A stretch of DNA of 64,000 nucleotides from Halobacteriovoraceae bacterium (GCA_963719505.1 CAVRCF010000001.1:1120001-1184000); one strand, 5' to 3'. Positions 1-64,000 are shown, counted from the first letter of the stretch. The notes: generated from the sequence alone by a model not told the origin. Numbers and translations are program-made.

Positions 1-76
1 CAGTGGCTTTAATCTTCAAACTTTTCCAACAGTTAATCTGATTGAGCCTCTTAGAAAAAGTAAAATCGTCGTCGAG

Positions 77-47680: not shown

Positions 47681-47751
47681 TCCAAGAGAATACAAGTATT
47701 TACCGAGAATAAAAAGTGACAAAAATACTCTTATAAATTTTATTTCCTTTG

Positions 47752-47780
47752 TTGACAGACAAGGCAAAAGGGCTTAAATT
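47752..47780 (+). promoter_or_regulatory. Sigma70 promoter of tRNA-Arg
   Basis: TTGACA-N17-TAAATT. Confidence 0.65.
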
Positions 47781-47834
47781 TTACAGCCTATCTACATTAA
47801 TTCTCTGTAATTAGAGGTATTTAGATTATCCAAT

Positions 47835-47911
<77 letters not shown>

Positions 47912-48009
47912 TTTTAAGTCATTTCAAGTACTTGCAATCATTATGTTTTAAGCCCTAAAGTCGAACCCGTAAAGGTTCGATAAACCTATGAGCTTAAAAT
48001 GAGGTTTTT

Positions 48010-49251
48010 ATGCAAGTGAGAAAAGTAAAAAACAGTGATGGGTCTGTGCGTTATCGGTACAGGTACTATGAGAAAGGTAAATTAAAGTCTGTTCTCAACA
48101 GTGACCTCCCTTATCATCCAAAAACTGATGAACAAGCAGAAGTACTAAGGAAGAGATTAGAGTCAACCTATGAGGCTGCCAAGTTAGAAACGAAGAGCCA
48201 AGAAGAATGGCACGAGAAATACTACAGCTATAACTCCCTATTTGAGACTTTCGCAAAGTACCGCAAAAAAAAAGCTAAGAACTCCTATAAAGACAAGCTT
48301 TCATATTTTAGAAACTATGTTCTTCTCTACTTTTTAGAAATCCAAAAGCTTGAGAATCTTGAGACCTGGAAAGAAAGGCGGTACGACTTCGTATTGTGGC
48401 TAAGAGAAAGAGATAAGATGCGAGGAGAAGGTAAATTAGCTTCTCAGACTATCAATCATATAATCACAGAGTTTAATGTATTTATTGATTTAATGGCTCA
48501 GACAGGCAAAATAGAAGCTCCTTTTACTATAAATTTACTGCACAAGGATGAACTCAACAAAAGAGGAGCTGAGGCGGTCCTTTCCGATGAAGAAAGTGAA
48601 CTTCTTTTAGAGGAGCTAGCAAAATTTGATGTAAAAAGCTCTGAAATCTTCAGGGTGCTTCTAAATACAGGTATGAGATACAACGAATTGTTAAGCCTTG
48701 AGAGATCTAGTATTAAAAAGGGTGAAATCCCCGAAAAATCACTGACCAAAGCACTCAACTACGGAATGGCTAATAAAACAATGTATTGTTATATTGTTCT
48801 AAGCTCTCAAATAGATAAATCCACAGGTAAAAGAAAGCCTCTTAAGTCAAAGAAGCAAATCTCTATCGCTGACTCAAGGTTTGTTCCTATTTATGATAAA
48901 GAAACATTCAATATTTTAGTTAGGGCCTTAAAAGAATCTAAAGCTAAAGAAGAAGAAACTTTATTTCACTACTTTTACAAGTATTCTCGATTAAATAGAG
49001 CTTTGAAGAAAGCTTATGATCAAATTGGTCAGTACACAAAAAAGTATTCTTATAAGTCTTCTCACTCTGCAAGGCACACGTATGCTACTTATTTATCTCA
49101 AATTGATCCATCATCTTATTTAGCGACGACTATCTTAGGGCATAACTATCAAACATCGGCTCGGTATAATCACACTCACGCAATATTAATGAAAAAGCTA
49201 ATTAATGAAGCTAATACGGTTGATATAGATGACTGGGAAGAAGTTGCATGA
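48010..49251 (+). CDS. Tyrosine recombinase/integrase
   Basis: NTGMRYNEL (Arg), HSARH (HxxR), LGH, TSARY (Tyr); adjacent to tRNA. Confidence 0.92.
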   Translation: MQVRKVKNSDGSVRYRYRYYEKGKLKSVLNSDLPYHPKTDEQAEVLRKRLESTYEAAKLETKSQEEWHEKYYSYNSLFETFAKYRKKKAKNSYKDKLSYFRNYVLLYFLEIQKLENLETWKERRYDFVLWLRERDKMRGEGKLASQTINHIITEFNVFIDLMAQTGKIEAPFTINLLHKDELNKRGAEAVLSDEESELLLEELAKFDVKSSEIFRVLLNTGMRYNELLSLERSSIKKGEIPEKSLTKALNYGMANKTMYCYIVLSSQIDKSTGKRKPLKSKKQISIADSRFVPIYDKETFNILVRALKESKAKEEETLFHYFYKYSRLNRALKKAYDQIGQYTKKYSYKSSHSARHTYATYLSQIDPSSYLATTILGHNYQTSARYNHTHAILMKKLINEANTVDIDDWEEVA

Positions 49252-49520
49252 CAATTACGCAAGCTAAAATTAAAGAATATAACGCAGATCTAATTAGAGT
49301 TAGAAATACAAGGCGCGATAGGTTTTTGGATACTTACCCAGACTACAAGAGCTTCTATCATTTTTTAATAAAGAAAGGTGATTCAAACATATGTTTTCGC
49401 ATTTTGACGGAGTTTATAGATAGAGATCTTAAAAATTTCCATTCCCCCAATTTTGAAGATTGGATATTTGAAGTAATAGCCAAAGAAGCAGAAAATCTTT
49501 TTTGTCTACCTTACTTTTGA
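49248..49520 (+). CDS. Hypothetical protein translationally coupled to the integrase
   Basis: ATGA overlap with the integrase stop. Confidence 0.6.
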   Translation: MTITQAKIKEYNADLIRVRNTRRDRFLDTYPDYKSFYHFLIKKGDSNICFRILTEFIDRDLKNFHSPNFEDWIFEVIAKEAENLFCLPYF

Positions 49521-49680
49521 GATCGTAACTAGTTTTAGAAAATTTAGTCGAAAATTATGACACCTTATTAATGTCTGGACCCGGAATTATTAACTCTTAA
49601 GCCTTCTTGGAATAATTAAGAGATCTTAACTCATGGCAAATTCAACAATGACGATAAGGGATAGTGACCAAGGAGAATCT

Positions 49681-50052
49681 ATGAAGTTTTTGTTATTGAA
49701 CATTATTTTAATGACATCGTTTAATTTGATGGCCTGTAGGGTTAGAGTTACTAATGGAGTAACGAATGAATCTAAAACATTTCAAGCTACTAAATTTCCT
49801 TTCAAACTAAGTTTAGGAAACTCTAATTGGGTCTGTTTTTTAGATAAAGGTACTTATTCGAAGGAAAGCTATTATGGATTTAAATGTTCCATAGGGTCCA
49901 ATGCATCCTTTCTTTCTTCAACTATTGATAAACATAGTAGCGACTATATAAGTTCGATTCTTGTAGAGAAAAATCCAAAAACTCAATTTGTTATAGAAGC
50001 AGATAGATGTGACTTGAAAAAATCAAAAACAAAAAAGAGTCCTGCCTCATAA
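49681..50052 (+). CDS. Small secreted Cys-containing protein, paralogue A
   Basis: SD AAGGAG, ATG 49681, signal peptide; shares motifs with 50191-50529. Confidence 0.7.
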   Translation: MKFLLLNIILMTSFNLMACRVRVTNGVTNESKTFQATKFPFKLSLGNSNWVCFLDKGTYSKESYYGFKCSIGSNASFLSSTIDKHSSDYISSILVEKNPKTQFVIEADRCDLKKSKTKKSPAS

Positions 50053-50190
50053 GAAATGATTCTTAAACTCTTTAATGATTAAAGTTCATGCTGTTAAACT
50101 CTCTCAGGAAAAGTGTAAAACAGGATTAGATGATAAAGATTTGTGTGAAATTATTTAATAGTAAGATTAGTTTAATTAAAAGGATGATTT

Positions 50191-50529
50191 ATGAAAAATT
50201 TATTATTAGGGATATGTTTCTTCGGTTCATTTTACTCTTATGCCTGTCAAGTTGAAATAAAAAATTTAAATAATACTAATGACGTTATAAAAAGTAAGGT
50301 GGACAGCTATCCCTTCAATATATCTCTTCCTGGTACAAAATGGACTTGTGCAATTATGAAGTCTCCTGGGGAGCCCATTTATTACCAAACTTTATGCACT
50401 ATTGGTGATGAATATAGTGTCATATCTACAGCTGTTCATCGAGAAACAAAGTTCGCAGAAATTGGTCTTGCTGAAAAAAAGACAAAGAAAATGTACCAAA
50501 TTTTACTAAAAGAGTGTCATGTAAATTGA
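50191..50529 (+). CDS. Small secreted Cys-containing protein, paralogue B
   Basis: Signal peptide; AC.V, PF..SL, W.C and YY...C.IG shared with paralogue A. Confidence 0.7.
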   Translation: MKNLLLGICFFGSFYSYACQVEIKNLNNTNDVIKSKVDSYPFNISLPGTKWTCAIMKSPGEPIYYQTLCTIGDEYSVISTAVHRETKFAEIGLAEKKTKKMYQILLKECHVN

Positions 50530-50532
50530 GGA

Positions 50533-50560
50533 CGTAGCCACTACGATTGTAATGGCTACG
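50533..50560. terminator. Hairpin between convergent genes
   Basis: CGTAGCCA...TGGCTACG stem. Confidence 0.55.
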
Positions 50561-50603
50561 AGAGATTAATTAATCCTTAGAGTTTGAGAGAACTTAAGAT
50601 GAA

Positions 50604-50837
50604 TTATTTATCCCAATCACATACTAATTCAGCAGTACAAGTTGTATTTCCTCTAAAGTCTGTAGTGCATCTTGTAACTGTCCTACAAGCTTTTGGTATC
50701 TCATCCATGATTTCATATGATTCTTCATTATAAGCTTTAGTATGAGCAACTAGATCTTGAAGTGTTAATACAGATCCCGTTCCTGCGATTGATGCGAATG
50801 ATAACGTTAATCCAACTACCATAATAATTTCTTTCAT
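50604..50837 (-). CDS. Small secreted protein with four Cys
   Basis: Signal peptide; C-terminal CRTVTRCTTDFRGNTTCTAELVC. Confidence 0.65.
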   Translation of the reverse strand: MKEIIMVVGLTLSFASIAGTGSVLTLQDLVAHTKAYNEESYEIMDEIPKACRTVTRCTTDFRGNTTCTAELVCDWDK

Positions 50838-50883
50838 AATTTTCCCCTATGTATAATTGCTTAATTGCAACTGACGTTCATAA

Positions 50884-50926
50884 AGCAACAGGTGGGCCAT
50901 TATATGATCTATATAGGTTATTGAAA
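50884..50926 (-). promoter_or_regulatory. Sigma54-type promoter with IHF-like site
   Basis: Minus strand TGGCCCACCTGTTGCT at 50884-50899; TAGGTTATTGAAA at 50914-50926. Confidence 0.55.
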
Positions 50927-51101
50927 TATCGTTAACGACGTTCCGAAAATGGATTTTATTGTTCTGAATATAGAATCTTTTTAGAATATTCCATATTTCA
51001 TGAGAGACTTCTTCTGTGAGTGATATTTAATTTATCCTCTCTAATGATTCGGTTCTTGATTATATTCATTACTATTTTCTTCAACACTGTAATCTATTTG
51101 T

Positions 51102-51737
51102 TTAGTACGGCGATCGAATAGTATTCAGAAAGGAAATATACTCCAAGATAATTCTAACTTCTCTTTTAAAGGTCCTACTAAAATCGTTCAGCTTTTGAAG
51201 ATCTAAAAAGCGTTCATGATATATATCTATTGCTTTATGAAAAGCTTCTGAATGAGGTGTTCCTCCGTTCTTGAGAAGATCAATAAGTGACCTTTCCTTA
51301 CTGTACATTTTTACATTATGCTTCTTATCGATTCTGTAATCTTCTATACCGATTAACTTGGATCGACCTACTCTAGTAGCAATAAATAGGTCATTCTCGG
51401 TCAGGGTTGAGTTTCTCGGAATATCAACAGAAAGGGGGCTGGGGAATTGCTCTCCCAATCCGTGATAATATAGCGAGGAAGTACCAGACACAACAGCATT
51501 AGGGTGAGTCTTAGCTAAAGCGATTAGATTCTCGTTGGCCGGGTTATGTATATCTTCGCCTACAATATAGAGACCTCTGCTTATCTGCTTCAAAACTCCG
51601 GCCTTTTTAAAACGTGATATTTCTGTTCTATTACCTAGAAGCTTCAATAGCTCTTTAGTTGAGTACATCTCGCCTTCGTGTCGTTTTAAAAAATCAGTAT
51701 ATTTCTTAGATTTAAGCATTGTTATATTGTACACCAC
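51102..51737 (-). CDS. AbiEi-family (type IV TA) antitoxin-like protein
   Basis: LKQISRGLY wHTH, PNAVVSGTSSLYYHGL, VKMYSKERSLIDL. Confidence 0.8.
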   Translation of the reverse strand: MVYNITMLKSKKYTDFLKRHEGEMYSTKELLKLLGNRTEISRFKKAGVLKQISRGLYIVGEDIHNPANENLIALAKTHPNAVVSGTSSLYYHGLGEQFPSPLSVDIPRNSTLTENDLFIATRVGRSKLIGIEDYRIDKKHNVKMYSKERSLIDLLKNGGTPHSEAFHKAIDIYHERFLDLQKLNDFSRTFKREVRIILEYISFLNTIRSPY

Positions 51738-51993
51738 TTATTGTATTATTGGTATAGAATGTAACAAAGCCAAAGAAGAAAAGGGATATATCACCACAAG
51801 TGATTGATTTTACTCGGTTTCTCATACCAACATCCCTTAACCACTATACCGATGGTTTTTCAAAAAATTGCAGATATATCGAAAATAGCCTATAATGAGC
51901 CATATAGTGCATCTTGTAACAAGCTGATCACTTACTTGCGTTTATGCTTACGATAGCTTGGCGAGGCTAATAAGGTATTATTAGAGGATATTT

Positions 51994-52692
51994 ATGAAGA
52001 CATATACAATTAGAGATTATGAGTTCGAAGAAGGGCTCTATAAGGCAGATTTCCTTAGAGTTGTCTTAAACGGTGGTCAGGATATAAAAGAAGGTACTGA
52101 TGAGTACAAAGAGCTTATTAAGAATGGGATGAACCTTCACAGAGCAGTTGGTCAGCATAGCGATTATCTACACAAACTTAGAAGAGGTTTTTACTATATC
52201 GGTCCCAAGAATAAAGCTCAGAGAAAAACATTTGATTGGGAGATCATCCACGAGTTTTATCCAGATTTTGTTGTTTCTAGAATCCATGCTTTATATCTCT
52301 GAAAGCTCATTGATAAAGAAGATATTGATCAAGATTCAATTTCTCTAGACTATTCCAGTGAATCGAAAAGAAATACGGGTAAAGAGTTAGATATCAAGTT
52401 GTTAGTTGATGAGCGCTTTAAGCCATACATGTACGACATATATAAATTCAAAAATGGAGCCCAGGTTAAGTGCTACACAAAAGAGAGAGCTCTAATTGAT
52501 GCATTTCTAATAGGGAATAAAGACAATCGAAATATCTACTTTAAGGCTATCAGTCGCTATTTCAAGTCAGAAGGCTTCTCTCCTGAGGTTCTCGAACGGT
52601 TTTCTAAGCTTAAGAAAGTCTTTAAGAGAGAATGCAAGGATATCATTGGCAAATTAGAGCATTTAAACTTTCTGAAGAAGAATAAGCTCTAA
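51994..52692 (+). pseudogene. Second AbiEi-like gene interrupted by one in-frame TGA (52300-52302)
   Basis: ORFs 51994-52302 and 52399-52692 share a frame, with 32 open codons between them; LHKLRRGFY, PDFVVSRIHALYL*KL, VKCYTKERALID. Confidence 0.7.
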
Positions 52693-52778
52693 AGACTTAT
52701 ACCTAGTTTTTCTTTAGCTTACTAATACTATTGCTAAACATGCTTCACAGGAGAGCTTGGTAGAGTAGGTATCTCCTA

Positions 52779-53393
52779 TTAAGACGATTTCCTCAAAAAC
52801 AGTTCTCTCATGGTTTTCTTTTCGTCGACATGAGAATAATTCTGGACCATTTTTAAACTCATCTTTAAAGTTTGAGCTATCTGTAAATCTGATAGATTCG
52901 AATTCAGAAGAAGTGAAACGTTACTATGTCTGAGACTATGTAGATCTAGGTCATCGCCTAGGTCTTTCCTTATACATCTGTAACAGAGGTTTCTAGAGAT
53001 TCGGCCATCTTTATTCTTGAAGATAAACTCCTGAGGTTTAAGCCTCTTAAAGATTCTTTCCAGTAAAGGGTTTATAGATGGATCAATAGTAATATATCTC
53101 TCAGTATCAAAGTCCTTTTTCTTCTTTAGAACCTTCATCTTTGCTGTGTAGAACCCATCCTCTAAAACGAAGTCTTTCTTCTTTAAAGATAGGGATTCAG
53201 AGATTCGTGCCCCTGAGCAGTAGATAACTGAATAAAGAAGCCTAAAAATTTCATCGATTTCCTCGTCTTGAATAAGAGTATCTAAGAAAGCACTCAGCTT
53301 AGAATCTTTGACAACACAGACCTTTTTACCTTTAGAAGAGGTTGCTCTAACGGATTCGTAGAAAAAGTCTTTATATCTGTCATTAATTTCCAT
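52779..53393 (-). CDS. Short tyrosine recombinase (catalytic domain only; resolvase/invertase-like)
   Basis: CSGARISESL, LHSLRHS, VQNYSH. Confidence 0.88.
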   Translation of the reverse strand: MEINDRYKDFFYESVRATSSKGKKVCVVKDSKLSAFLDTLIQDEEIDEIFRLLYSVIYCSGARISESLSLKKKDFVLEDGFYTAKMKVLKKKKDFDTERYITIDPSINPLLERIFKRLKPQEFIFKNKDGRISRNLCYRCIRKDLGDDLDLHSLRHSNVSLLLNSNLSDLQIAQTLKMSLKMVQNYSHVDEKKTMRELFLRKSS

Positions 53394-53576
53394 TGATTGC
53401 TCCTATGTCTGAATAAAGAATATCACGTATTGACGCGGCACGCAACAAAATACTCCATATTGTTGCATCGTCTATGAAAAACTTAGTTAAATCGGTAGTT
53501 TAGATGGTTTCAGTCTATTAAAGTTCTCCACAGCTATTTCGATAACTTACAACTGTGGAGGATTGAACTAATAAGA

Positions 53577-53855
53577 TTATTCGTTTAAGGCAAGGTTTTC
53601 TAAATCTCTCTGAACATATTCTAGATTTTGCTCAGCTATTTCGAATGTAATAGTATTTTCTAACTCTCTCTCTATAGATTCTCTCAAACTCGGTCCAACT
53701 TTTCCGCTCTCGTATTCTTTTTGATAATAAGCTTCTTTATCGAACTCACTCATAGTAAAGTGCTTGTATTCAGCAAGTGTTTCTATATACTGCTCAACTA
53801 CTTTGTTTTCGTACCTGTCTCTTTTAATATTTTCATACTCTTGCATATCCAACAA
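53577..53855 (-). CDS. Acidic hypothetical protein
   Basis: 92-aa ORF overlapping the upstream gene end. Confidence 0.5.
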   Translation of the reverse strand: MLDMQEYENIKRDRYENKVVEQYIETLAEYKHFTMSEFDKEAYYQKEYESGKVGPSLRESIERELENTITFEIAEQNLEYVQRDLENLALNE

Positions 53856-54519
53856 ATCTCTTGAATTGTCGAAAAACTCTTTCGAGTAACGGCTCTGTTT
53901 CTATGTTTTCAGCTACAACATTATAAAACACATCCCTATTTCGTTCGTCGTCAATCACTCTCAACATCTCTCGGCCAATATCCGTGAAATTTTCTCTGAC
54001 TACTTTGTCTTCATTCGCTAGAAGCTTAAGGGCTTCTACTATCTTTGGTTCTAGTTTTTTCGAAAAGGGATTGTAAACGGCGTACTCATTGACTAGCGCT
54101 TCAGACAAAAGCGAAAAGTTGTTTAAAATAAATTTGAAGGATTTTATATCTAGGCTTTTTAGTTTGTGAAGAAGGGTTGGGTGCCTTTCTTTAAGGAGCT
54201 TTGAAAATTTCTCCAGATTCTTTTTTGAGAGAGGAAGCATAGAGACAATACTGTCGAAAAGCTTGTTAGTGATGTCATTTACGAATGTTTCTTCTTCAAT
54301 TTTTTTAGCTGTCTTCTTTTTATCTTTAGCTTTAGTTTTAGCTTTTTTATTAAGCTTCTTGCTAGTTTTTTTACTATCTATAACTTCTTTCTTAGTTATC
54401 TGTGTATTTCCAGATTTATCATTGAAATGGTAGTATGCTCCACCAAAACAAAGAACGGTAACGATTAAAGAAATTCCAATTGCTCCAATTATAATACTAA
54501 TTATTATTCTTAACATCAT
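53833..54519 (-). CDS. Membrane-anchored hypothetical protein with Lys-rich linker
   Basis: SD AAGGAG; N-terminal TM helix. Confidence 0.7.
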   Translation of the reverse strand: MMLRIIISIIIGAIGISLIVTVLCFGGAYYHFNDKSGNTQITKKEVIDSKKTSKKLNKKAKTKAKDKKKTAKKIEEETFVNDITNKLFDSIVSMLPLSKKNLEKFSKLLKERHPTLLHKLKSLDIKSFKFILNNFSLLSEALVNEYAVYNPFSKKLEPKIVEALKLLANEDKVVRENFTDIGREMLRVIDDERNRDVFYNVVAENIETEPLLERVFRQFKRFVGYARV

Positions 54520-54542
54520 CCTTCTCCTTGTTGTTTTTCATT

Positions 54543-54554
54543 TAATATACCTTT
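54543..54554 (-). promoter_or_regulatory. Element-specific motif AAAGGTATATTA, copy 1
   Basis: Exact 12-mer 23 nt upstream of ATG 54519. Confidence 0.65.
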
Positions 54555-54593
54555 CCTGCTTATCTACTTACTCTCTTGTTGTGTTTTCAAATC

Positions 54594-55781
54594 CTAAAAC
54601 TTAGAGATCAGCTGAGCTGTTCCATTTGGATAGATAATTACAATTGAAACCGTCCAAGAAGATGCCCCGCCCCTGGCATAGTTTTGCTTCGAGATATCAG
54701 TTAAATGACCTACGGAGAAGTTCTCTCCTGAATATCCCCCAGCGTGATTATGACCTGTACACGATTTTGGTATGTATTTCTCAGCTGATCTATAATTAAA
54801 GCGAGCCCCGTTACTGCCTTTGTGACCATGGAGACTCATTTCGAACCCACACTCTTGAACCGGAGTATCATCCATAAAATTAATGTTTCTGTTTATTTTA
54901 TGGTATTTTTTCAGTGCTATTTCTATAGTAGGAACTGACTGATTAAGAGATAATGTATTTCTCATAAGTTCTGCTTTTAACTCATGAAGAATAATTTTAT
55001 CAATTTCTGCCGCCTTTCTAAACTTCTCGTCGTCTTTTAGAAAGCGATCTAAAAAGTCATCATGATTTGACTCAACGATATTGAGTGTTTTAAATTTAGA
55101 AGAAATCTTATTAAGAGTTTTGGCTAGGGAAGCAAGTTCTTTTTCTAATGAAACCCCATAAGCTATCTTATTTGTTATATACATAGAGGAGTTAACCTCG
55201 TGCGGGTTTAAACTGATGCCGTCGAAGACATCTCCAACATAAATATTCTTAACTCCTACTTTTTGAGCGTAGTTAGTTGCCCAAGCTAACGATTTCTTAT
55301 CATGAGTAAATTCGTGTAGATCTCCGAACAGACAAGCTTTTGCGTTGCCTTTTTTCCATCCATTCTTTGTAAATAATATTCCGTTATCATAGACTTTATT
55401 GTCTCTTTGAGTGAGATTTCTGATTTCAAACTTAGTATCGTTTTTAACCGAGACTAATAGGGCATATGGCCCAACACCTAAACCAACCATAGCTCTTGTC
55501 GATCTGTTTACTGTCGGTATATGACTTAAGTAGTTCTTATTAGATGACATATAGATAGCGCTGGACCCTTGAGATGCTCTACAGGCAGCCATTTCGCTGA
55601 TCTGAGCACAAGGAAAGACAACAAGATTCTTATTAAACTCTATAGTTACGTACTTATTCTTATTGTTCTTAACAAGTAAGCAGAGCTTAGCCTTATATCT
55701 CTTCTTGATCTGAGCTAAAATCTCAGAACTAAATTCACCAAGGTTCTCTTCTCGAATAATAATATAGTTGGTTGCCTTCAT
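54594..55781 (-). CDS. Calcineurin-like metallophosphoesterase resembling phage T5 A1-family proteins
   Basis: GDLH, GDVFD, SNHD, HGHKGSNGAR, GHNH, GASSW...YPNG. Confidence 0.7.
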   Translation of the reverse strand: MKATNYIIIREENLGEFSSEILAQIKKRYKAKLCLLVKNNKNKYVTIEFNKNLVVFPCAQISEMAACRASQGSSAIYMSSNKNYLSHIPTVNRSTRAMVGLGVGPYALLVSVKNDTKFEIRNLTQRDNKVYDNGILFTKNGWKKGNAKACLFGDLHEFTHDKKSLAWATNYAQKVGVKNIYVGDVFDGISLNPHEVNSSMYITNKIAYGVSLEKELASLAKTLNKISSKFKTLNIVESNHDDFLDRFLKDDEKFRKAAEIDKIILHELKAELMRNTLSLNQSVPTIEIALKKYHKINRNINFMDDTPVQECGFEMSLHGHKGSNGARFNYRSAEKYIPKSCTGHNHAGGYSGENFSVGHLTDISKQNYARGGASSWTVSIVIIYPNGTAQLISKF

Positions 55782-55790
55782 AGCTCCCCC

Positions 55791-56321
55791 TTAAGCCGCC
55801 AGCTTCGTTGATGCTTTTTTTTGTTTCTTGTTCTCTCTTGCTCTTTTATTATTTTCTGCACTTGTGACAACTTCCAAGTTCTCGGCTCTATTATCTGACC
55901 TAATCTTATTACCGTGATCAACTTGGCATTTGGTGCCCAAAATTAGACCAGTAAAGCATTCGATCATTAATCTATGCACATACATGTTATTCGATTTTCC
56001 TTTACCGATTCCATGGGTAATGTAGCGATATTCATTAGGCTTAGCGGTTAGCTTTCTCTTTTTCCTGGGACCAAATACTTCACCTTTGATATTTATCGAG
56101 AGTGGCAAGTATGGGTGAGCTATCAATTTCTCTTTGAAATTCTTCTTTTTAAACGCCTTAGCCTTAGCAATAGCTTCTTTGAATTTCTTATTGACTAAAT
56201 CAATCTTCTCGACGCCAATCGGTGTCATCGTCTGAGCTTTGATCTTTCTGTCGTTCATCATTTTTTGTGTTTGTGTCATTTTCTTTGCTTTTGCTTTCAT
56301 CTTCTTTGCTTTTGTTTTCAT
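55791..56321 (-). CDS. HNH homing-type endonuclease
   Basis: VHRL...VDHGNKIRSDNRAENLEVVTSAEN. Confidence 0.88.
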   Translation of the reverse strand: MKTKAKKMKAKAKKMTQTQKMMNDRKIKAQTMTPIGVEKIDLVNKKFKEAIAKAKAFKKKNFKEKLIAHPYLPLSINIKGEVFGPRKKRKLTAKPNEYRYITHGIGKGKSNNMYVHRLMIECFTGLILGTKCQVDHGNKIRSDNRAENLEVVTSAENNKRARENKKQKKASTKLAA

Positions 56322-56372
56322 CTCGCCTCCCAGGCTATTACGTTCTTTAGAGCATTTGCCCGTTCTGGAAAG

Positions 56373-56384
56373 TAATATACCTTT
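56373..56384 (-). promoter_or_regulatory. Element-specific motif AAAGGTATATTA, copy 2
   Basis: Exact 12-mer 51 nt upstream of the HNH ATG. Confidence 0.65.
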
Positions 56385-56561
56385 GTTGAAAAAAAGTGCT
56401 TTTTTAGGGGGTTTAGAATCGAACCATTTGTTACAAACTGTTGTTTTTGTTGGTTTTTTACTGCTTTCGCCATTTTGAGGGTGATTTAAAATAAAACGAA
56501 AGGGAGCTATTTTTTTTTGAGAGGTATATTGTTAAAAACGGACCAAGCGATGGAGCTAATT

Positions 56562-56675
56562 GTGTTTAAAAGAGAGCCTAGTATTTTAGAGAAGACGATA
56601 GAATCAACAATCGATGTCTTTGTCGTTGGATTTAAAGCTACTCTGTATTTAATAATTCAAATGCTAAGAGAATAA
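56562..56675 (+). CDS. Small hydrophobic protein (37 aa), not in ORF track
   Basis: SD GGAG plus GTG; MFKREPSILEKTIESTIDVFVVGFKATLYLIIQMLRE*; variant motif AGAGGTATATTG at 56520-56531. Confidence 0.5.
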   Translation: MFKREPSILEKTIESTIDVFVVGFKATLYLIIQMLRE

Positions 56676-56698
56676 ATTAAATCACTTCGGAGAGACTC

Positions 56699-56827
56699 AT
56701 GGAAAATAATGAATTTACAATATCTAAGATATGTTTTTTGACCATAGTTTCAGGATTATTCCTTGGAATTCTGGTCACTTATTGGTCTGTTAACGAGATT
56801 ATTCTAGTTATCGAATCACTCCGCTAG
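56699..56827 (+). CDS. Small single-TM protein (42 aa), not in ORF track
   Basis: SD GGAG plus ATG; MENNEFTISKICFLTIVSGLFLGILVTYWSVNEIILVIESLR*. Confidence 0.55.
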   Translation: MENNEFTISKICFLTIVSGLFLGILVTYWSVNEIILVIESLR

Positions 56828-56852
56828 ACCAAGCGAGGCCCTCTTGAATCTA

Positions 56853-56864
56853 AAAGGTATATTA
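56853..56864 (+). promoter_or_regulatory. Element-specific motif AAAGGTATATTA, copy 3
   Basis: Exact 12-mer 29 nt upstream of ATG 56894. Confidence 0.65.
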
Positions 56865-56893
56865 AGCAAAACAACAACAACAAGGAGAGGATA

Positions 56894-57388
56894 ATGGAGA
56901 AAGAATTCAACACTACTGTAGAAGACAAGTTTAGAGACGCTCAAAACCTGTTTAAGCAACAACTAAGGAGTAACAACAAGGCTGAGAAAGCTATTGGTCT
57001 AGTATTTTTCTCCCTAACTACTTCGTGGACTCTAGTCCTTATTCATAGCTATCTCTTTTCTACTTATTTCGATAAAAGCTTTAAGGATCTTTATATTCTA
57101 ACTGTTTTCATCTCCATACTTTTTTCTGGAGGCTTGGATTATTCCCTATTTGCTCTCTTCAGATTTACAACGAGCAAAGTGGTATTAATCGTCAATATCG
57201 TACTTTTCTCATATCTATATTATGTAGTTGGAACTCATTCGCTTTTAATTGGACTGGCTATCAACATTGCTCTTCTGTTTTATAGATTCTTAGCACCCAG
57301 TAAGTACTTGATGTTCAGTAATGAATTTATAGATGAGCAGCAAGCTAACCTTAATATCAAATCAACAGATTTATGTAAAAGACACTAG
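56894..57388 (+). CDS. Integral membrane protein (about four TM)
   Basis: SD AAGGAGAGG; hydrophobic segments. Confidence 0.75.
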   Translation: MEKEFNTTVEDKFRDAQNLFKQQLRSNNKAEKAIGLVFFSLTTSWTLVLIHSYLFSTYFDKSFKDLYILTVFISILFSGGLDYSLFALFRFTTSKVVLIVNIVLFSYLYYVVGTHSLLIGLAINIALLFYRFLAPSKYLMFSNEFIDEQQANLNIKSTDLCKRH

Positions 57389-57397
57389 GAGGTCATA

Positions 57398-57868
57398 ATG
57401 CATCTTAATAAATTAATATCAGCACAACGATTAGCGGCATCAGAGCAAAATAGCTTTCCGGCTACAGTATCTCCTAAGGCTGATTACGTAATTAAATTTT
57501 TGTTTGCTGTTTTGCTATATCCTCTTTATTTACTATTCAAAGTTAAAGAGAGTATTTTAAATTCTTTTAAAAATAGAAGAACCACCAAGGTATGGGATGA
57601 CGAAGATCAAGAGTTTAAAAACACTCAAGCCGCCAGTGAAACTATCGCCTACGATACAAACCTTCTTCATAGCATAAGAATTATCTTTTCTTCTTTTATG
57701 ATGATTGATGATGATAACAAAGAAAGAAGGTTTTATCACCAATACTACAACGTCACCGAGCTAATCGCTTATGTATCATCACTATATAGACATGTGGACT
57801 ATATTTTACTTTGCGTGTTTTATACAGGGTTCTTGGTAAGATTCATGAAATTCGTATTGGAGTCGTAA
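57398..57868 (+). CDS. Membrane protein
   Basis: SD AGGAGG; two hydrophobic segments; TAATG coupling to the next gene. Confidence 0.7.
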   Translation: MHLNKLISAQRLAASEQNSFPATVSPKADYVIKFLFAVLLYPLYLLFKVKESILNSFKNRRTTKVWDDEDQEFKNTQAASETIAYDTNLLHSIRIIFSSFMMIDDDNKERRFYHQYYNVTELIAYVSSLYRHVDYILLCVFYTGFLVRFMKFVLES

Positions 57869-60465
57869 TGGAAGATAAATATATGTATTTAATTATTGCC
57901 GTTTGCCTTTTATTTGTAATCCCGGTAATAAAGTTACTTGGTTGGCTTTTAAGTAAGATTATTCGTGTTAATCCAATTCATGATAAGAATTATTATGACA
58001 AGATTAATAGAGAGAATAATAACGGGGGAGAGACTCCATATGGGGAGTTACTTACCTTAAGAGATCTTACTGTTATACAAAAGACTCGAAAGGTTTATAA
58101 CTATACAGATAATCTTGGATACCAAAGAAGAGAAGAGAGGGAGATTGAAGAGACTATTTATCCATCTGTTAAGAAGATAAAAAATGGTGTCCAAATCCAT
58201 TTCAGCGAAGAGTTAAGGAATACTGAGTTTACAAAAGATAGCTATACTCGATATATCGCTGATGTTTTTAACCAGAATTCTGTTACTGAGACTAAGAAGC
58301 TCCTAATGGTGAGAACTCCAAATCCATATATTGTTAATTACTTCCAAGTACATCCAGTTAATTACATGTTTAAGACGCCAATTGATGAGGATAGTGAGTT
58401 TAAAGCCAAACTCGATAAAGTATTAGATAAAGACAGCGCAGAACTTCTATTTGGAGAACCTCAAGTTGAATTAAACGTTCCGGATCAGATAGTTTGGCCA
58501 TTAACAGCTTCTCCTCATGTATTAGTTGCTGGTCAGACAAGATCCGGTAAGACTAAGACTATACTTAGTTTTATAACTCAAATTGCTACTGTCTATCCAG
58601 AGTCTAAATTTTTCTTCGCTGATGGTAAGAGTTCACCTGACTATGATCATTCTGCGGAATTTTTATCATCTCTACCTGTAGCAAAACCCCACCATAGTGA
58701 AGATCCATTAGTGAATCTCGCTTACATGGTTGATAAGGTGTGGGCAGAATATGAGAATCGTAAGAGATTATTTGAAGAACTAGCAGTTAAAGGAAATTCA
58801 TGTAGTACCTATATTGAGTATAATAATTATGTAGATGAAAAGCTCCCTCGTGTGTTTTTATTTATTGATGAATTTGCAGCGTTTTGTTTACTTGCCCCAG
58901 ATAAGGTAGCCTCTCTATTAACAGTCAAAGGTACTCTATTTAACAAGATTAGAAGATTGCTCGCAGAATCGGCTTCATATGGGTTTAGTATTATAATAGC
59001 TTCTCAAAGGGTACAAAATACGGATTTCCCAACTGCAATTCGTGATAATCTAACTACGTGGCTTATCCATTCAGTAAATGAGAAAGCTGCTGAATTTCTT
59101 GATCTTAAAGGGAAGGTGGGGAAACTTAAGCCTGGAGCGTTCATATTGAAGATACAAGGTTTAAGGTGTGAAAACTCTGGCGAAGCTAATATCGAATCAA
59201 GATTGCCTTATGTCGGTAACGAGCCTCAAAAGGTTAAGACCTTAAAGAAGGATATAGTTAAAGAATCTTTTGATGAAGATTACATTTATACTACTGGACT
59301 TGATACTGATTATTCCAAGCTTCCTCCTAATTCATTAAAGAAATATGTAAAGAACCTATTTTGTGTAAGAGAAGGTTTTGAAGTTATCAAGAATGAAGAT
59401 GCTGAACATGATCACCTTTCTCTGTTTGTTAAGAAAGGTAATAAGCAATATGCAATTGGTTTCGTTGAAGTAGATGAGCTTATAGATGAAACATTCTATA
59501 CTCGTTTAAATCGATTTCTTTCAGATGAAGAGAAGCTAATGCAGAAGATTTTTTTTGTAAGAGGTAATATTACCTCAAAAGCTAAAGAAACAAATATCTC
59601 TGAACTAGTTGATATGAACGGTGATATCGCCCTAATACAGCAGGATTATGTGCGTAGGCTTAAGAAGGCTAAGAAGCTGTATGATGATGGGGATAGTGAA
59701 GAGATCTTCTCTGCATTACTTGTTGGTATCAAAGCAGATGAGAAGAAAGAAGCTCTTTTAATCGACAAGAAGGATGCTGAGCTAGGAAGTGTTGAGATCT
59801 CTATTAACGAATTAGAAAGGATCAATAATCTCTCAGGATCTTCTGATGCCCAAAAGATAGCTAAAGGGGAGCAGTTTGAGAGATTCGTTCACGCTCTATT
59901 TAGACAAATTGGTTGGACTACATACACCCCAGAACTGCTATTCGCTAAGAGGATCTATAAAAGACCTGGCGATGTTGGGGATTTAGGGCTGGATATGTTA
60001 TTAGCTAAAACAGATACGGATCTCAGAGAACTATCGCAAGAAGAAGCTGATAATAGAGTTGCTGTACAGATCAAGAATTGGAACTCAGCAATTCCGGCAA
60101 AGGTTCTTGGTGAAGTATTGAGATCCTACCACAATTTTAAATGTCTCAAGAATGGAACTCCTATCAAAAAAGGGATGGTTGTCTCAACGTCCACATACAC
60201 CCAATATACAAAGTTAGAGGCTTCAAATCAAGGAATAGAGCTCATAGGATACAATGACCTAAGAAAGCTCGTTATAGACGCTGTGAGGGACGCTCAGAGC
60301 GCAGGAGAAGCACATCAGGCTATCCCTTTTGCTGAGATGGATAGAGATGAGCAAATCCTTCATTTAAACGAGCAAGGACTAAGTTTGAGAGATATCGCTA
60401 CTAGAGTAGGGGTTAAGTCTCCATCTACTGTTAGGAACGTATTGAAAAAAGCGGAGGCTGCATGA
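57868..60465 (+). CDS. TM + FtsK/SpoIIIE ATPase + Mrr-like restriction endonuclease + C-terminal HTH fusion
   Basis: PHVLVAGQTRSGKT, ADGK, FIDEFA, IIASQR; GEQFERFVHALF..GW, GDLGLD, AVQIK, GMVVSTSTYT, GIELIG; GLSLRDIATRVGVKSPSTVRNVL. Confidence 0.85.
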   Translation: MEDKYMYLIIAVCLLFVIPVIKLLGWLLSKIIRVNPIHDKNYYDKINRENNNGGETPYGELLTLRDLTVIQKTRKVYNYTDNLGYQRREEREIEETIYPSVKKIKNGVQIHFSEELRNTEFTKDSYTRYIADVFNQNSVTETKKLLMVRTPNPYIVNYFQVHPVNYMFKTPIDEDSEFKAKLDKVLDKDSAELLFGEPQVELNVPDQIVWPLTASPHVLVAGQTRSGKTKTILSFITQIATVYPESKFFFADGKSSPDYDHSAEFLSSLPVAKPHHSEDPLVNLAYMVDKVWAEYENRKRLFEELAVKGNSCSTYIEYNNYVDEKLPRVFLFIDEFAAFCLLAPDKVASLLTVKGTLFNKIRRLLAESASYGFSIIIASQRVQNTDFPTAIRDNLTTWLIHSVNEKAAEFLDLKGKVGKLKPGAFILKIQGLRCENSGEANIESRLPYVGNEPQKVKTLKKDIVKESFDEDYIYTTGLDTDYSKLPPNSLKKYVKNLFCVREGFEVIKNEDAEHDHLSLFVKKGNKQYAIGFVEVDELIDETFYTRLNRFLSDEEKLMQKIFFVRGNITSKAKETNISELVDMNGDIALIQQDYVRRLKKAKKLYDDGDSEEIFSALLVGIKADEKKEALLIDKKDAELGSVEISINELERINNLSGSSDAQKIAKGEQFERFVHALFRQIGWTTYTPELLFAKRIYKRPGDVGDLGLDMLLAKTDTDLRELSQEEADNRVAVQIKNWNSAIPAKVLGEVLRSYHNFKCLKNGTPIKKGMVVSTSTYTQYTKLEASNQGIELIGYNDLRKLVIDAVRDAQSAGEAHQAIPFAEMDRDEQILHLNEQGLSLRDIATRVGVKSPSTVRNVLKKAEAA

Positions 60466-60875
60466 ACAAATCAGATATAATTGAGAAGATCGAAACTCTT
60501 AAGAGTATGCCTGTTTTTAAGAAAAGGTTCTTGTCTAAAGATGGGTATCTAATTCCCATTAGGCTCACAATCATCAAATCGAACAAGATTAATGCCTGCG
60601 TATACAAACAAGGATCAAGAAGGGATGTCGCCAATATGAACGTTAATTCGTCATATTTTGGTTTAACTGAGAATCAGAAACTTTTCATTATAGCGCATGA
60701 GATGACCCATATTTTACATAGGGACTATTCTTTCATAGGGGCTCATTTACCTATAGTTTCTCGCATTAAAGAGAAAAGGGCAGATATAACAGCCGCCAAA
60801 GTATGTCGAGATATGGGTATTGATATGGGTGAAATTATAGAACTATTTAAGGGGCCACAAAAGAGGAATATTTAG
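60462..60875 (+). CDS. HEXXH zinc-metallopeptidase-like protein (M48/ImmA-like)
   Basis: INAC, FIIAHEMTH, EKRAD; ATGA overlap with the FtsK fusion. Confidence 0.75.
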   Translation: MNKSDIIEKIETLKSMPVFKKRFLSKDGYLIPIRLTIIKSNKINACVYKQGSRRDVANMNVNSSYFGLTENQKLFIIAHEMTHILHRDYSFIGAHLPIVSRIKEKRADITAAKVCRDMGIDMGEIIELFKGPQKRNI

Positions 60876-60939
60876 CAGGATAGCTTCGTTTCTTGAGGAC
60901 TCCCATCCATCTCATTATGATCGATTTCAATACCTCAAG

Positions 60940-61124
60940 GTGTTCATTCAAGTGTCCATTTAGCTGTTCATATCTGTCCAATCCAGATTGAACGGCCGTT
61001 CATTTCAAATTCTAAATTGCTGTAATTACATGAGAATGAACACTTAACAGGTGAAATGAACAGGTTTCAGAGAATATTTGTGTGTGACGGAATATATTGA
61101 TAATTATCGATATATTTTGAACAG
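60940..61124. repeat. Array of TGTYCA boxes, direct then inverted, around a palindrome
   Basis: TGTYCA at 60941, 60953, 60965 and 60975; palindrome TGAACGGCCGTTCA 60989-61002; inverted TGAACA near 61037, 61057 and 61118. Confidence 0.6.
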
Positions 61125-61296
61125 CAGATGTTGGATGAGGGAGAGGAGAGCCTCATATATTAAGCCCTTAGATTATATACATATAAATATTATTTAATTA
61201 GTTGTTTAGTTAGTTGCTTAATGAGCTTACGTAGATCACTGACTCCTATGATCTTTATGTAAGCTCACTAACTTCATACTTACACAACCTTTTGGA

Positions 61297-61893
61297 CTAT
61301 CTTGATTTATCTAGATCAACTCTGTATTCAGTCCCTAGTTTGCCTTCGATCTCGTGATAAGTTAGCACAAAATCTTTTGTCATTATGACCTCTCCAGCTT
61401 GGATTACTTTAGGATTATTAAATCCCTCATTTATAGCTTTCTCTAGTTCTAAAGCATTCTTCCTCTTAACCTTATTGCGCTTCATCCCAAGGCAGTGAAA
61501 ACCAGAACAATCCCATTTCATAAGAGCTTTTTTAGCTTGTTGTTTAAGTGCTTCAACATCAGAAGAATTGTCTATGTAAAGAGAATAGTCATCCAAGGTT
61601 TTATATTCAATATGTTTCACATCTTTATCATGGGTGTAGGTAACTTTCACATTGAATTTCTTTGTTATAACTTCTAACCCAGATCTGATAATTTTGATCT
61701 CCTCTTTGCCTACTTGATCAAGAACTTCTATTTTGTGATTGAGAGTCGTTCTATTTTCATTGTTTATTGTCTCGTAATATCTATCTCTGATCTTCTCATT
61801 TAATGAGTTGCTTACTTCCTCTGGTAGAGAAGAGGTACAACTAGCAAAAAATAGAATTGATATTACACTAAGTAGGTTTCCGATTTTGATCAT
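61297..61893 (-). CDS. Lipoprotein, hypothetical
   Basis: Lipobox FASC; SD AAGGAG; extended -10 TGTGCTATAAT at 61937-61947. Confidence 0.75.
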   Translation of the reverse strand: MIKIGNLLSVISILFFASCTSSLPEEVSNSLNEKIRDRYYETINNENRTTLNHKIEVLDQVGKEEIKIIRSGLEVITKKFNVKVTYTHDKDVKHIEYKTLDDYSLYIDNSSDVEALKQQAKKALMKWDCSGFHCLGMKRNKVKRKNALELEKAINEGFNNPKVIQAGEVIMTKDFVLTYHEIEGKLGTEYRVDLDKSR

Positions 61894-62013
61894 TTATTCT
61901 CCTTTTTGGTTTCGTTATGAAGTGTTGCCTTTTAGTATTATAGCACAGTATGTAACGATGCGTTAGTGTTAATTTAAAATGGTTCTAGTTTCATTATTTG
62001 GAGATAATCAATG

Positions 62014-62288
62014 AAAAGCGACCACCAATAAATTTTATATAAAAAAGCGACCACCAATAAATTTTATATAAAAAAGCGACCACCATTAAATTGTTTAAAA
62101 GCGACCACCTCAAGTGTTTGAAATATCGATCAGGTGATCCATTTTAAAAAGCGACCACTAGTTTTGCTAAGTATTTGATACTACATAAAAGCGACCACCT
62201 TTAATTGGATCTGGTCCGAAAAAAGGACGTAAATAGCCGTAAATATGCTGGATTAGGTGGTCTCACTAATAATTAATAAAAGCGACCA
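62014..62288 (+). repeat. Iteron-like array of AAAAGCGACCAC(C) direct repeats
   Basis: Copies at 62014, 62043, 62072, 62097, 62147, 62187 and 62278 (last one 11 nt); inverted variant 62255-62264; first two units form a perfect 29-bp tandem. Confidence 0.9.
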
Positions 62289-62304
62289 TTAAGAAGAAAT
62301 CTTA

Positions 62305-62829
62305 TTAGAATCTTGGGGGTGGAGAACAAAGAAGTTTTCTTTCCTGATTATCTCCAACACATTCTTTTACATATTTATCGTTATGAAGATTTGGTGTTCT
62401 AGAGCAGTCCCACTCTTGAAGTTGTTTGAAAGCGTAACTTTCATCCAATTTCCAAAAAGTCGTATGAACAGCAAGAGAATATTCGCTCTGATTTTTTTCT
62501 ATTACATAAGTAAACATCTGTTTCTTTGGGTCCACTTTTGTGATCTTATAGAACAATCCTCTTTTTTGATCGATCAAACATTTTCCTACGCTGATTTGAT
62601 TCCACTTCAACATGTCATAAGTATTCTGATACGGTCTATTTGGAAGCTTGTCACCGTCAGTTAGTTTAACTGGGGCGACTCTCGCTTTTTGCTCTTCACT
62701 AGCTCCTAAGAGCGCTGAACCTTCTGGCATATTAACAACTGAAATTTCTGTACACTTACCATCTCGACAAACAATTTCACCGAAAGCAATTGTAGAAGTA
62801 AGTAAGCTAATTAAAATTAATAGTCTCAT
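62305..62829 (-). CDS. Secreted Cys-rich hypothetical protein
   Basis: Signal peptide; six Cys; SD AAGGAG. Confidence 0.7.
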   Translation of the reverse strand: MRLLILISLLTSTIAFGEIVCRDGKCTEISVVNMPEGSALLGASEEQKARVAPVKLTDGDKLPNRPYQNTYDMLKWNQISVGKCLIDQKRGLFYKITKVDPKKQMFTYVIEKNQSEYSLAVHTTFWKLDESYAFKQLQEWDCSRTPNLHNDKYVKECVGDNQERKLLCSPPPRF

Positions 62830-62904
62830 TTGATCTCCTTGTTTCTAGTATATCACAGAAATGTTACAATATGCGTAGTTTTATGTGTTTTTAGCAGTTT
62901 GTAA

Positions 62905-63459
62905 CTAAGCTACAGAACGTTGCCATTCCTCATCTTCGTCATCAAAGTGAGAATCAAGTAAAGTCCCTCTGTAAAAAAGCTCAGGAAAAGCATCCACAAC
63001 GGAATCGATCTCCTCAATTGTAGTGTCTAGGGCAATGATCATGTGATTCAAATCCATTTCAGTCTGTAGTAGCTGGAAAATTTGTCTTTGTTTCGAATTC
63101 AAACGACTAAGGCCTTCTACTGGTATCTCGACAGCTACATCTTTAAACTGTACTGAAGAGAGCGGTGGAACTATCCCTGTTGTTATTGCTATCCTGGAAT
63201 CCCAATCAATGATTCTTTTTATAGCTTCTTCATTAATTAAACTGTTAATAGAAGCGGTGATATGAGTTTCGAGATCAGATTCTTCCGAATCCCAAGTTCT
63301 CAAGCCTAGCCAAATAGCGATATTTCCTAATTGTGAAACTTCTTCTCGATAGAAAGAGTCCTCAATCATAATTGAGTCAGCAATTTTCTGAATCAACGGT
63401 CTAAATTTAGCTAATTGGTTTTTAAAAGTCTCTTTTTCGCTTTTCTTTGAGTTTTTCAC
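62905..63459 (-). CDS. Sigma-70-family sigma-factor-like protein
   Basis: Region 2-like FRPLIQKIA...EEVSQLGNIAIWLGLRTWD...LETHITASI; region 4-like LSRLNSKQRQIFQL. Confidence 0.6.
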   Translation of the reverse strand: MKNSKKSEKETFKNQLAKFRPLIQKIADSIMIEDSFYREEVSQLGNIAIWLGLRTWDSEESDLETHITASINSLINEEAIKRIIDWDSRIAITTGIVPPLSSVQFKDVAVEIPVEGLSRLNSKQRQIFQLLQTEMDLNHMIIALDTTIEEIDSVVDAFPELFYRGTLLDSHFDDEDEEWQRSVA

Positions 63460-63503
63460 ATCTATTCTCCATTAGTTGTATAAAGCCTTATGCTTCGTAT
63501 CCG

Positions 63504-63515
63504 TAATATACCTTT
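63504..63515 (-). promoter_or_regulatory. Element-specific motif AAAGGTATATTA, copy 4
   Basis: Exact 12-mer 44 nt upstream of the sigma-like gene start. Confidence 0.65.
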
Positions 63516-64000
63516 CAAGTTGAAGATCTGTTCAGAGGCTCGTACAGATGCTTCTCATATCAATATACATGCTCTGAAAGCTCCATATCGGCTTATACAG
63601 GCCTTTCAGAGGCTTTCTTTGTGTTTGGGCTTGGACTAAGGCTCTAAAAGGCTTATATATAGCTTCTAGAGATGATTTGATGTTGCTCTTTCGTTTTATG
63701 ATATTATCTCTAAATTAGAGGTAATTTTTTGGGTTGATCGGGAGAATGTTGGAGATACTCAGAAAATGCTCGTTTTTGAGCTAAGTTATTGAAAATATTC
63801 GTTGTCTTTAACATAATGATACTTATCTAATAATACACTCACTTTAATCTTATTATTACACCTCATCTCTAATTTATTATTCCTCATTTATATATCTACC
63901 ACTAAACCTTTTTTTTCAGGGATTTTCACTTTTGACGATAAATTTACGCTACTAATTTGTAGCTAGAATCTATATCGTAAAGAGCTCTCATTGTATCTAC

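Follow-up and report, generated by a model that had tools for sequence, protein, structure and literature searches.

The 64,000-nucleotide (nt) window analysed here, one stretch of the genome of a Halobacteriovoraceae bacterium (GCA_963719505.1 CAVRCF010000001.1:1120001-1184000), holds the left part of an integrative element in which an 11-nt motif, AAAGGTATATT, precedes eight gene units, one of them led by the gene of an orphan sigma-like protein, P0001. In this genome the motif is confined to the element, it is oriented with the genes that it precedes, and it lies a short distance upstream of their start codons. In the reading favoured here, to which a probability of about one half is given, these units form a self-activating regulon that would be read by P0001, acting as a private sigma factor, through a -10-only promoter element. 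What sets the system apart is a combination of features, namely the lack of a -35 element, the lack of T at -15, and a sigma-like gene that is preceded by its own motif. A private promoter motif and an element-encoded sigma-like factor had been proposed in an original prediction made from the sequence alone.

The motif and its distribution

The motif was defined as the 12-mer AAAGGTATATTA with the 11-nt core AAAGGTATATT, and its consensus is [A/G][A/G]AGGTATA[T/A]T. The window contains four exact copies of the 12-mer, against a mean of 0.02 in dinucleotide-preserving shuffles, none of 100 of which reaches four. They are the intergenic sense copies, 23-51 nt before start codons, that the original prediction had listed, with the same coordinates and strands, and the variant that it placed at 56520-56531 on the plus strand, AGAGGTATATTG, is present as well (Table 1). 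Beyond the window the element has two more copies, in the form AAAGGTATATTT, and a second variant, GAAGGTATAATG, giving eight motif-led units with six exact 11-mer copies and two variants. All eight sites are intergenic and in sense orientation, 18-52 nt before the starts, and a Shine-Dalgarno sequence lies between each copy and its start codon. The flanks of the copies are alike in nothing beyond the 11 nt, and since they are unrelated, the possibility that the copies arose as duplications is ruled out. A leader, AACAACAAGGAGA, is common to the sites at 54543 and 56853, the two copies for which similar leaders had been noted. In an unbiased count, no other dispersed 11-mer of the element recurs as often as AAAGGTATATT, and only a tandem iteron is commoner.

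The genes that follow the motif include the pair encoding an HNH endonuclease and a metallophosphoesterase and also the FtsK operon, as the original prediction had it. The predicted set is nevertheless narrower than the one found, which also takes in genes for envelope or secreted proteins and, beyond the window, a gene for a protein of 408 amino acids (aa). The genes for the integrase, a second short recombinase, an AbiEi-family protein and a PDC-S10 phosphoesterase have no motif.

No exact copy of AAAGGTATATTA lies in the host part of the window (positions 1-47886), in agreement with the earlier inspection by eye, and the whole 3.69-Mb genome has six exact copies of the 12-mer, two of them outside the element. 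These two belong to one duplicated stretch on contig C4, have identical 50-nt upstream flanks and are antisense to the local open reading frames (ORFs). The 11-mer AAAGGTATATT occurs 12 times genome-wide, and six of these copies fall within the element, which is 0.62% of the genome. On a crude map of 3512 ORFs, every element copy (6/6) is intergenic and at most 120 nt upstream of a same-strand start; of the six in the host, a single copy is intergenic and none lies in sense orientation before a gene. The exact genome scan thus upholds the predicted confinement of the motif to the element.

The two places on contig C4 (C4:7360 and C4:37123, loci L008 and L009) form an inverted duplication in which the local ORFs look decayed. 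Each copy there is about 4 kb from a gene for a sigma factor of the extracytoplasmic function (ECF) type (C4:11007-11144 and C4:33035-33229).

Across 201 genomes of the family, the 12-mer is found 0-6 times per genome, a number that matches the reversed-word control. The relatives' copies were inspected at three places, in G032, G081 and G047, where some are intragenic, another belongs to an ordinary promoter, TTGAAT-17-TATATT, and the last is an upstream site of unclear make-up; among the other genomes, G171 has six copies, on small contigs. Matches to the 395-aa nuclease of the element, at 27-33% identity, are found in 3 of 200 family genomes, and viral contigs contain no match to it. No such motif turned up in literature listings on integrative and conjugative elements with ECF sigma factors or on mobile elements of Bacteriovorax and Halobacteriovorax.

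Signal architecture and host promoters

The motif contains the -10-like hexamer TATATT, and the layout suggests the -10 region of a promoter followed by a leader of about 10-45 nt. No shared -35 hexamer at 16-18 nt is visible by eye in the aligned motif sites, and a sigma-70 consensus scan flags the 63504 site only (TGAACA-18-TATATT, 9 of 12 matches), so the earlier statement that a common -35 is lacking holds. What is found is a repeated, conserved TAnnnT-type element before many genes with no conserved -35, which is the make-up of -10-only promoters. All eight sites have G at -14 and A at -15, and the motif class is invariant out to -17. With T at -15 in none of the eight, the sites do not qualify as host promoters of the extended -10 (TGn) kind.

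In the promoter regions of host tRNA genes, 14 of 27 reach at least 10 of 12 matches to TTGACA-16..18-TATAAT, seven of them with an exact TTGACA, a count made without a shuffle control. The -10 hexamers of these promoters lie 14-55 nt before the tRNA, nine of the 14 at 14-22 nt, and the five bases before them vary and are AAAGG in no case. Upstream of host genes, GGTATATT is not enriched, with 10 sense occurrences against a shuffle mean of 8.0 in 1819 regions, and G at -14 and at -13 before host TATATT stays at the background level of 15-17%. Together with the lack of any sense-upstream host copy of the 11-mer, the count for GGTATATT agrees with the expectation that the motif is not common upstream of host genes.

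Two other genes of the element, both without the motif, are preceded by proper TGn promoters, TGTGCTATAAT and TGTGATATACT, which are near-identical, lie in similar surrounding sequence and have the form TGTGnTATAAT/TATACT. The element therefore has two promoter classes, of which the AAAGG class is a separate one. Upstream of the sigma-like gene, the repeat TTCAGAGGCT is found at 63531-63540 and 63605-63614, and its inverted counterpart, CTCTGAAAG, lies between the two, at 63572. One of the TTCAGAGGCT copies overlaps the weak -35 of that gene's promoter, and the repeats may be an operator.

The sigma-like protein P0001

The gene of P0001 is preceded by a motif copy, as the original prediction had stated. 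The best Pfam match of the protein is Sigma70_r2 (E-value, E, 0.021, residues 18-75), its best NCBIfam match is the sigma-70 model PRK06759 (E 0.0024, residues 10-127), and the NCBIfam sigma70-ECF model TIGR02937 matches at E 0.025. In a language-model comparison, the nearest cluster (score 0.96, 173 shared features) has Sigma70_r2 in 16% of its members, and the ten best matches that have a family are all of the sigma clan. For residues 96-184 alone, the neighbours are viral clusters with Sigma70_r4 in 25-40% of members (score 0.89), which is a lead only.

The C-terminal region of a sigma factor carries the helix that reads the -35 box. In P0001 the last 60 residues have a net charge of -12 and three lysines and arginines (K+R), against 0 to +5 and 10-15 K+R in five host sigma factors. 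With so acidic an end, the sigma-4-like part of P0001 would be unlikely to read a -35, which fits promoters that have none. P0001 is taken, with a probability of about two in three, to be a sigma-70-family protein, a membership that is not established.

P0001 has no match in PHROG or PADLOC, and a word-based search for homologues returns the protein itself only. A phmmer search of 1.84 billion representative proteins returns P0001 and one protein made of 56-aa repeats, which was rejected as a spurious homologue, the match spanning 19 residues. Among 201 genomes of the order, it is found in its own genome only, apart from one match at E 0.0046 over 52 residues. It was found neither in viral contigs nor in a metagenome-assembled genome (MAG) of Oligoflexia, G223, nor in related FtsK-Mrr loci.

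Related elements with their own promoter words

The FtsK-Mrr gene is the only link between this element and the related loci L026 and L055-L059. Three of these (L056, L057 and L059) belong to a metagenomic element of about 15.7 kb that carries FtsK-Mrr, ParA and a Xer-like recombinase and that must be circular, since its coordinates are circularly permuted. Four GTGGTATATTA/C sites, which are proper TGn extended -10 elements, lie upstream of or between its genes, one of them 7 nt before an ATG, and no sigma-like gene was detected on it. In the 3.9-Mb MAG G223, all 16 copies of another word, ATAGTGTATACT, lie on the 198-kb contig C104 (L026, L039-L054), and many of them are preceded by a TTGACA-like -35 with a spacing of 16-17 bp. 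This contig carries an FtsK-Mrr gene, a TraG-like ATPase, thyA and TnpB, and has no match to Sigma70_r2. It probably represents a large plasmid, or a phage, that has a promoter word to itself. At some ATAGTGTATACT sites the distance to an ATG is only 6 nt, a hint of leaderless transcripts there.

Proposed mechanism and alternative explanations

In the proposed mechanism, the signal would be a promoter of the -10-only type, in which TATATT serves as the -10 hexamer and AAAGG fills positions -17 to -13, and host core RNA polymerase carrying P0001 would read it, the strongly acidic sigma-4-like end of P0001 being unlikely to contact a -35 box. Because the sigma gene is preceded by the same signal, P0001, once made, would give positive feedback, reinforcing its own synthesis and turning on all eight units together. 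Its first expression could come from the weak host-type -35 (TGAACA) present only at its own promoter, where a repressor bound to the TTCAGAGGCT repeats may act as a gate. Host-type extended -10 promoters, TGTGnTATAAT/TATACT, would serve a few other genes of the element. A bolder version, offered tentatively and with more doubt than conviction, is that P0001 founds a new, sequence-orphan branch of sigma factors whose acidic sigma-4-like domain no longer reads DNA, so that host RNA polymerase is directed to the 11-nt -10-only signal. P0001 and its own promoter would then make up a bistable, self-reinforcing switch, by which the nuclease pair, the operon of the FtsK-Mrr translocase and the genes of the envelope proteins would be fired simultaneously, in a programme of transfer or of suicide/defence run by a non-phage integrative element.

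Several results weigh against a private sigma factor. The matches of P0001 to sigma families all score below the curated cut-offs, with 15 bits against 24 for Sigma70_r2, 17.6 against 133 for PRK06759 and 14.2 against 42.9 for TIGR02937, and Pfam gives no Sigma70_r4 match in P0001 even at E up to 10. Among 3512 crude proteins, P0001 takes rank 78 (E 5.1) in a model made for this work from nine sigma factors (four of this genome and five of MAG G223) and rank 212 (E 28) in a second model, made from the five ECF-type ones among them. An hhalign comparison with three host ECF sigma factors gives a probability of 0.5%, and the alignment is limited to 13 residues where region 4 begins. The single-sequence AlphaFold model, all-helical with eight helices in two groups, has a mean predicted local distance difference test (pLDDT) of 37.5 and is unusable. 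Solved structures, compared by sequence with E allowed up to 10, yield chance-level matches only and no sigma factor. The label of sigma-like in the original prediction is weakly backed, by three sub-threshold best matches to sigma-70 models and by the language-model neighbours, and is left without backing by the cut-offs, the ranks and the search for homologues. On the side of the DNA, TATATT is also the -10 hexamer of the host promoters of tRNA-Gln, tRNA-Asp and tRNA-Ser, and with G at -14 kept as well, host sigma-70 might use the sites. Finally, the related elements have invariant motifs and no detected sigma gene, so an invariant motif by itself needs no private sigma factor.

Several of these points support the main rival explanation, rather unlikely but deserving serious weight, in which the host sigma-70 holoenzyme reads the -35-less sites as extended -10-like promoters, the extra conserved bases reflect selection for uniform strength or for a co-factor, and P0001 is not the reader. 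It is supported by the G at -14 in all eight sites, yet A replaces T at -15 in every one of them and a -35 is lacking. The hexamer is shared with three host tRNA promoters, but GGTATATT is unenriched upstream of host genes, and not one of the six 11-mers found in the host precedes a gene in sense orientation. Sigma-70 is not known to make specific contacts beyond the TGn positions -15/-14, and the invariance of the motif extends past them, to -17. The explanation also draws on the relatives, namely the 15.7-kb circular element, with a related FtsK-Mrr, four GTGGTATATTA/C TGn sites and no sigma gene detected, and contig C104, which has no Sigma70_r2 match and whose ATAGTGTATACT sites, 16 in number, are invariant and in many cases accompanied by a TTGACA-like -35. 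It draws as well on P0001 falling below every curated threshold. Against it, two other genes of this element are served by proper TGTGnTATAAT/TATACT promoters, which makes the AAAGG sites a separate class.

It is improbable that the 11-mer is instead the binding site of an element-encoded regulator, overlapping weak -10 boxes and co-regulating the units, since operators are mostly symmetric, and the motif is not palindromic and is oriented with the genes at all eight sites. Candidates for such a regulator exist in the helix-turn-helix (HTH) domain that ends the FtsK-Mrr protein (HTH_38 at residues 847-880 of 884), in the AbiEi-like HTH protein at 51102-51737 (E 2.8e-28) and in P0001 itself as an activator; an invariant stretch of 11 nt is typical of a specific protein site, and the relatives have parallel invariant motifs without a detected sigma factor. 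The motif nonetheless occupies the place expected of a -10 relative to the Shine-Dalgarno sequences and starts, with no other promoter visible nearby. Least probable by far is that the motif acts in the RNA, as a leader or processing signal, or has no function. At 18-52 nt from the start codons it would lie within the leader if transcripts began further upstream, but the consensus scan finds no upstream promoter candidates, the distance to the start codon varies over that range, and the sequence is -10-like. Four exact 12-mers against 0.02 expected exclude chance as an account of a functionless motif.

Comparison with known systems

A self-activating regulon under a private sigma factor has its closest parallels in phages. 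In T4, the late sigma factor gp55 reads TATAAATA at -13 to -6 (PMC1524935). The T4 late promoters share with the present case a short conserved element in the -10 region, the absence of a -35 and a sigma factor encoded by a mobile genome (PMC1524935). The motifs differ, TATAAATA in T4 and AAAGGTATATT here; T4 also needs gp33 and a sliding clamp, and no counterpart of these was identified in this element. Furthermore, P0001 has no detectable likeness to any phage family (no PHROG match), and the element is integrated and not phage-like.

In phiEco32, the conserved element of the middle and late promoters is AATGTA; it is centred at -11.5, and its reader is presumably gp36, a sigma factor of the phage (PMC12276001). 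The likeness lies in a small phage sigma factor with a single promoter element and in the use of host sigma-70 for early genes (PMC12276001), which resembles the two promoter classes found here. The motif is a different one, no gp79-like partner was identified here, and P0001 is unmatched beyond chance in the set of solved structures.

Xpf, from the defective prophage PBSX of Bacillus subtilis, is a sigma factor that has sigma-2 and sigma-4 domains and a mass of about 20 kDa (PMC10141391). Like the proposed P0001, it is encoded by an integrated element and turns on the genes of that element (PMC10141391). PBSX produces phage-derived particles, whereas the 16 proteins of the present element scanned against PHROGs gave no match to a capsid, portal or terminase family. 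P0001 matches no known sigma subfamily above threshold, and the likeness to Xpf leaves the type of promoter aside.

Host TGn promoters also resemble the motif sites, since both have G at -14 and a TAnnnT hexamer and both lack a -35, and differ from them in that the motif has A at -15 in all eight sites and an invariant A at -16 and -17. The strategy is thus one known from phages, probably met here in a new setting, a non-phage integrative element. If the proposal of a private sigma factor is true, a mobile element would insulate its own gene programme from the host by a private sigma factor and an 11-nt promoter, outside phages. The two would be an orthogonal sigma-promoter pair whose sigma factor has no relative among 1.84 billion representative proteins. 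The case would also give an entry to the regulation of the little-described FtsK-Mrr elements. The three examined each carry their own invariant promoter word. If host sigma-70 is the reader, the sites would be a uniform set of weak host promoters, which is ordinary.

The integrative element and its genes

A repeat search places the borders of the element at a tRNA-Arg(TCT) gene and at a second copy of a 28-nt repeat, which consists of the final 25 bases of the tRNA gene and three further ones and which recurs once, 22.7 kb downstream. From the position of this second copy, the element is 22,751 bp long, and only its left 16 kb are inside the window. It has the marks of an integrative element, with a tyrosine integrase adjoining the tRNA gene and the 3' end of the tRNA repeated at the far border. 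In a genome of the same genus, G159, the tRNA and the right flank have homologues that are separated by 1.3 kb, with no such element in between, although in inverted arrangement.

Capsid, portal, terminase and tail genes were matched neither among 16 window proteins with PHROGs nor among 22 + 11 proteins with Pfam, the PHROG scan being confined to proteins inside the window. On these grounds it looks like an integrative element, possibly self-transmissible or defence-carrying, rather than like a prophage. An Rfam scan of 47000-64000 finds the tRNA only. The features are listed in Table 1.

Table 1. Features of the element and its borders. Positions are those of the window, except those given in L003, which lie beyond it.
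Feature	Position	Strand	Remarks
tRNA-Arg(TCT)	47835-47911	+	ARAGORN, Rfam
attL, left copy of 28-bp direct repeat	47887-47914	+	repeat search
Tyrosine integrase of the element	48010-49251	+	Pfam Phage_integrase E 9.2e-10; no motif upstream
Genes after copy 1	53833-54519 and 53577-53855	-	228 aa with N-terminal membrane segment; 92 aa
Motif copy 1, AAAGGTATATTA	54543-54554	-	23 nt before ATG 54519
395-aa metallophosphoesterase gene, after copy 2	54594-55781	-	phrog_1745 'DNA transfer protein' E 1.8e-50; phrog_221 metallo-phosphoesterase
HNH endonuclease gene, after copy 2	55791-56321	-	HNH_3 E 2.3e-12
Motif copy 2, AAAGGTATATTA	56373-56384	-	51 nt before ATG 56321
Variant AGAGGTATATTG	56520-56531	+	18 nt before in-frame ATG 56550 of small ORF
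42-aa ORF, downstream of variant 56520	56699-56827	+	second small ORF of the unit
Motif copy 3, AAAGGTATATTA	56853-56864	+	29 nt before ATG 56894
164-aa protein gene, first after copy 3	56894-57388	+	
FtsK/SpoIIIE-Mrr-HTH gene, after copy 3	57398-57868 and 57811-60465	+	Pfam
M48-like gene, after copy 3	60462-60875	+	
Extended -10 (TGn) promoter TGTGCTATAAT	61937-61947	-	before 198-aa gene 61297-61893
Iteron array AAAGCGACCAC	62015-62289	+	6 exact copies and 1 with one mismatch; 0.47 expected
Extended -10 (TGn) promoter TGTGATATACT	62847-62857	-	before 174-aa secreted-protein gene 62305-62829
P0001, orphan 184-aa sigma-like protein	62905-63459	-	sub-threshold sigma-70 matches at residues ~10-130
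Motif copy 4, AAAGGTATATTA	63504-63515	-	44 nt before GTG 63459 of the sigma-like gene
Variant GAAGGTATAATG	L003:3176-3187	-	precedes 408-aa gene
Motif copy AAAGGTATATTT	L003:3366-3377	+	36 nt before ATG of 163-aa gene
Motif copy AAAGGTATATTT	L003:3907-3918	+	52 nt before ATG of 221-aa gene
attR, right copy of 28-bp repeat	L003:8610-8637 (window-equivalent 70610-70637, outside the window)		repeat search and sequence reading

The assembly has many errors by insertion or deletion (indels), in keeping with its completeness of 83.5% in 5 contigs only. The match to the N-terminal domain of host rpoC (L037, G000:C1:221987-225964) contains 11 stops and has a split reading frame, from which it follows that the assembly is rich in such errors and that ORF borders need care. 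The two FtsK-Mrr ORFs, of 156 and 884 aa, overlap by 58 nt and together have the length of FtsK-Mrr homologues (1015-1120 aa), so an indel has probably split what is a single gene. Conjugative elements of the FtsK/TraB (actinomycete-like) type use an FtsK-family translocase of double-stranded DNA as their transfer protein, together with repeated recognition sites. In the present element the FtsK_SpoIIIE domain is matched at E 2.2e-7 and an iteron array is present, and the NCBIfam model plasmid_TraB gives 20 bits only (E 1.9e-4), its cut-off being 800. A public gene call of the FtsK-Mrr protein is 506 aa only, on a contig of 22,652 bp, near the element's own length.

Among the other motif-led units, that of copy 1 has a weak spanin-like PHROG match (E 3.6e-4). 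Beyond the window, the 163-aa protein is apparently secreted, the 221-aa gene is followed by the gene of a 417-aa Big_9/BNR protein, and the likely start of the 408-aa gene is an in-frame ATG after GGAGAG, about 50 nt downstream of the GAAGGTATAATG variant. The iteron array sits between two minus-strand cargo genes and may be the replication origin of the element or a recognition region for the FtsK-type translocase.

Part of the cargo of the element is of the defence type. It comprises the AbiEi-family HTH protein named above, on the minus strand, a 97-aa AbiEi-like fragment at 52399-52692 and, beyond the window, the PDC-S10 phosphoesterase at L003:6342-7010 on the plus strand (E 1.6e-82).

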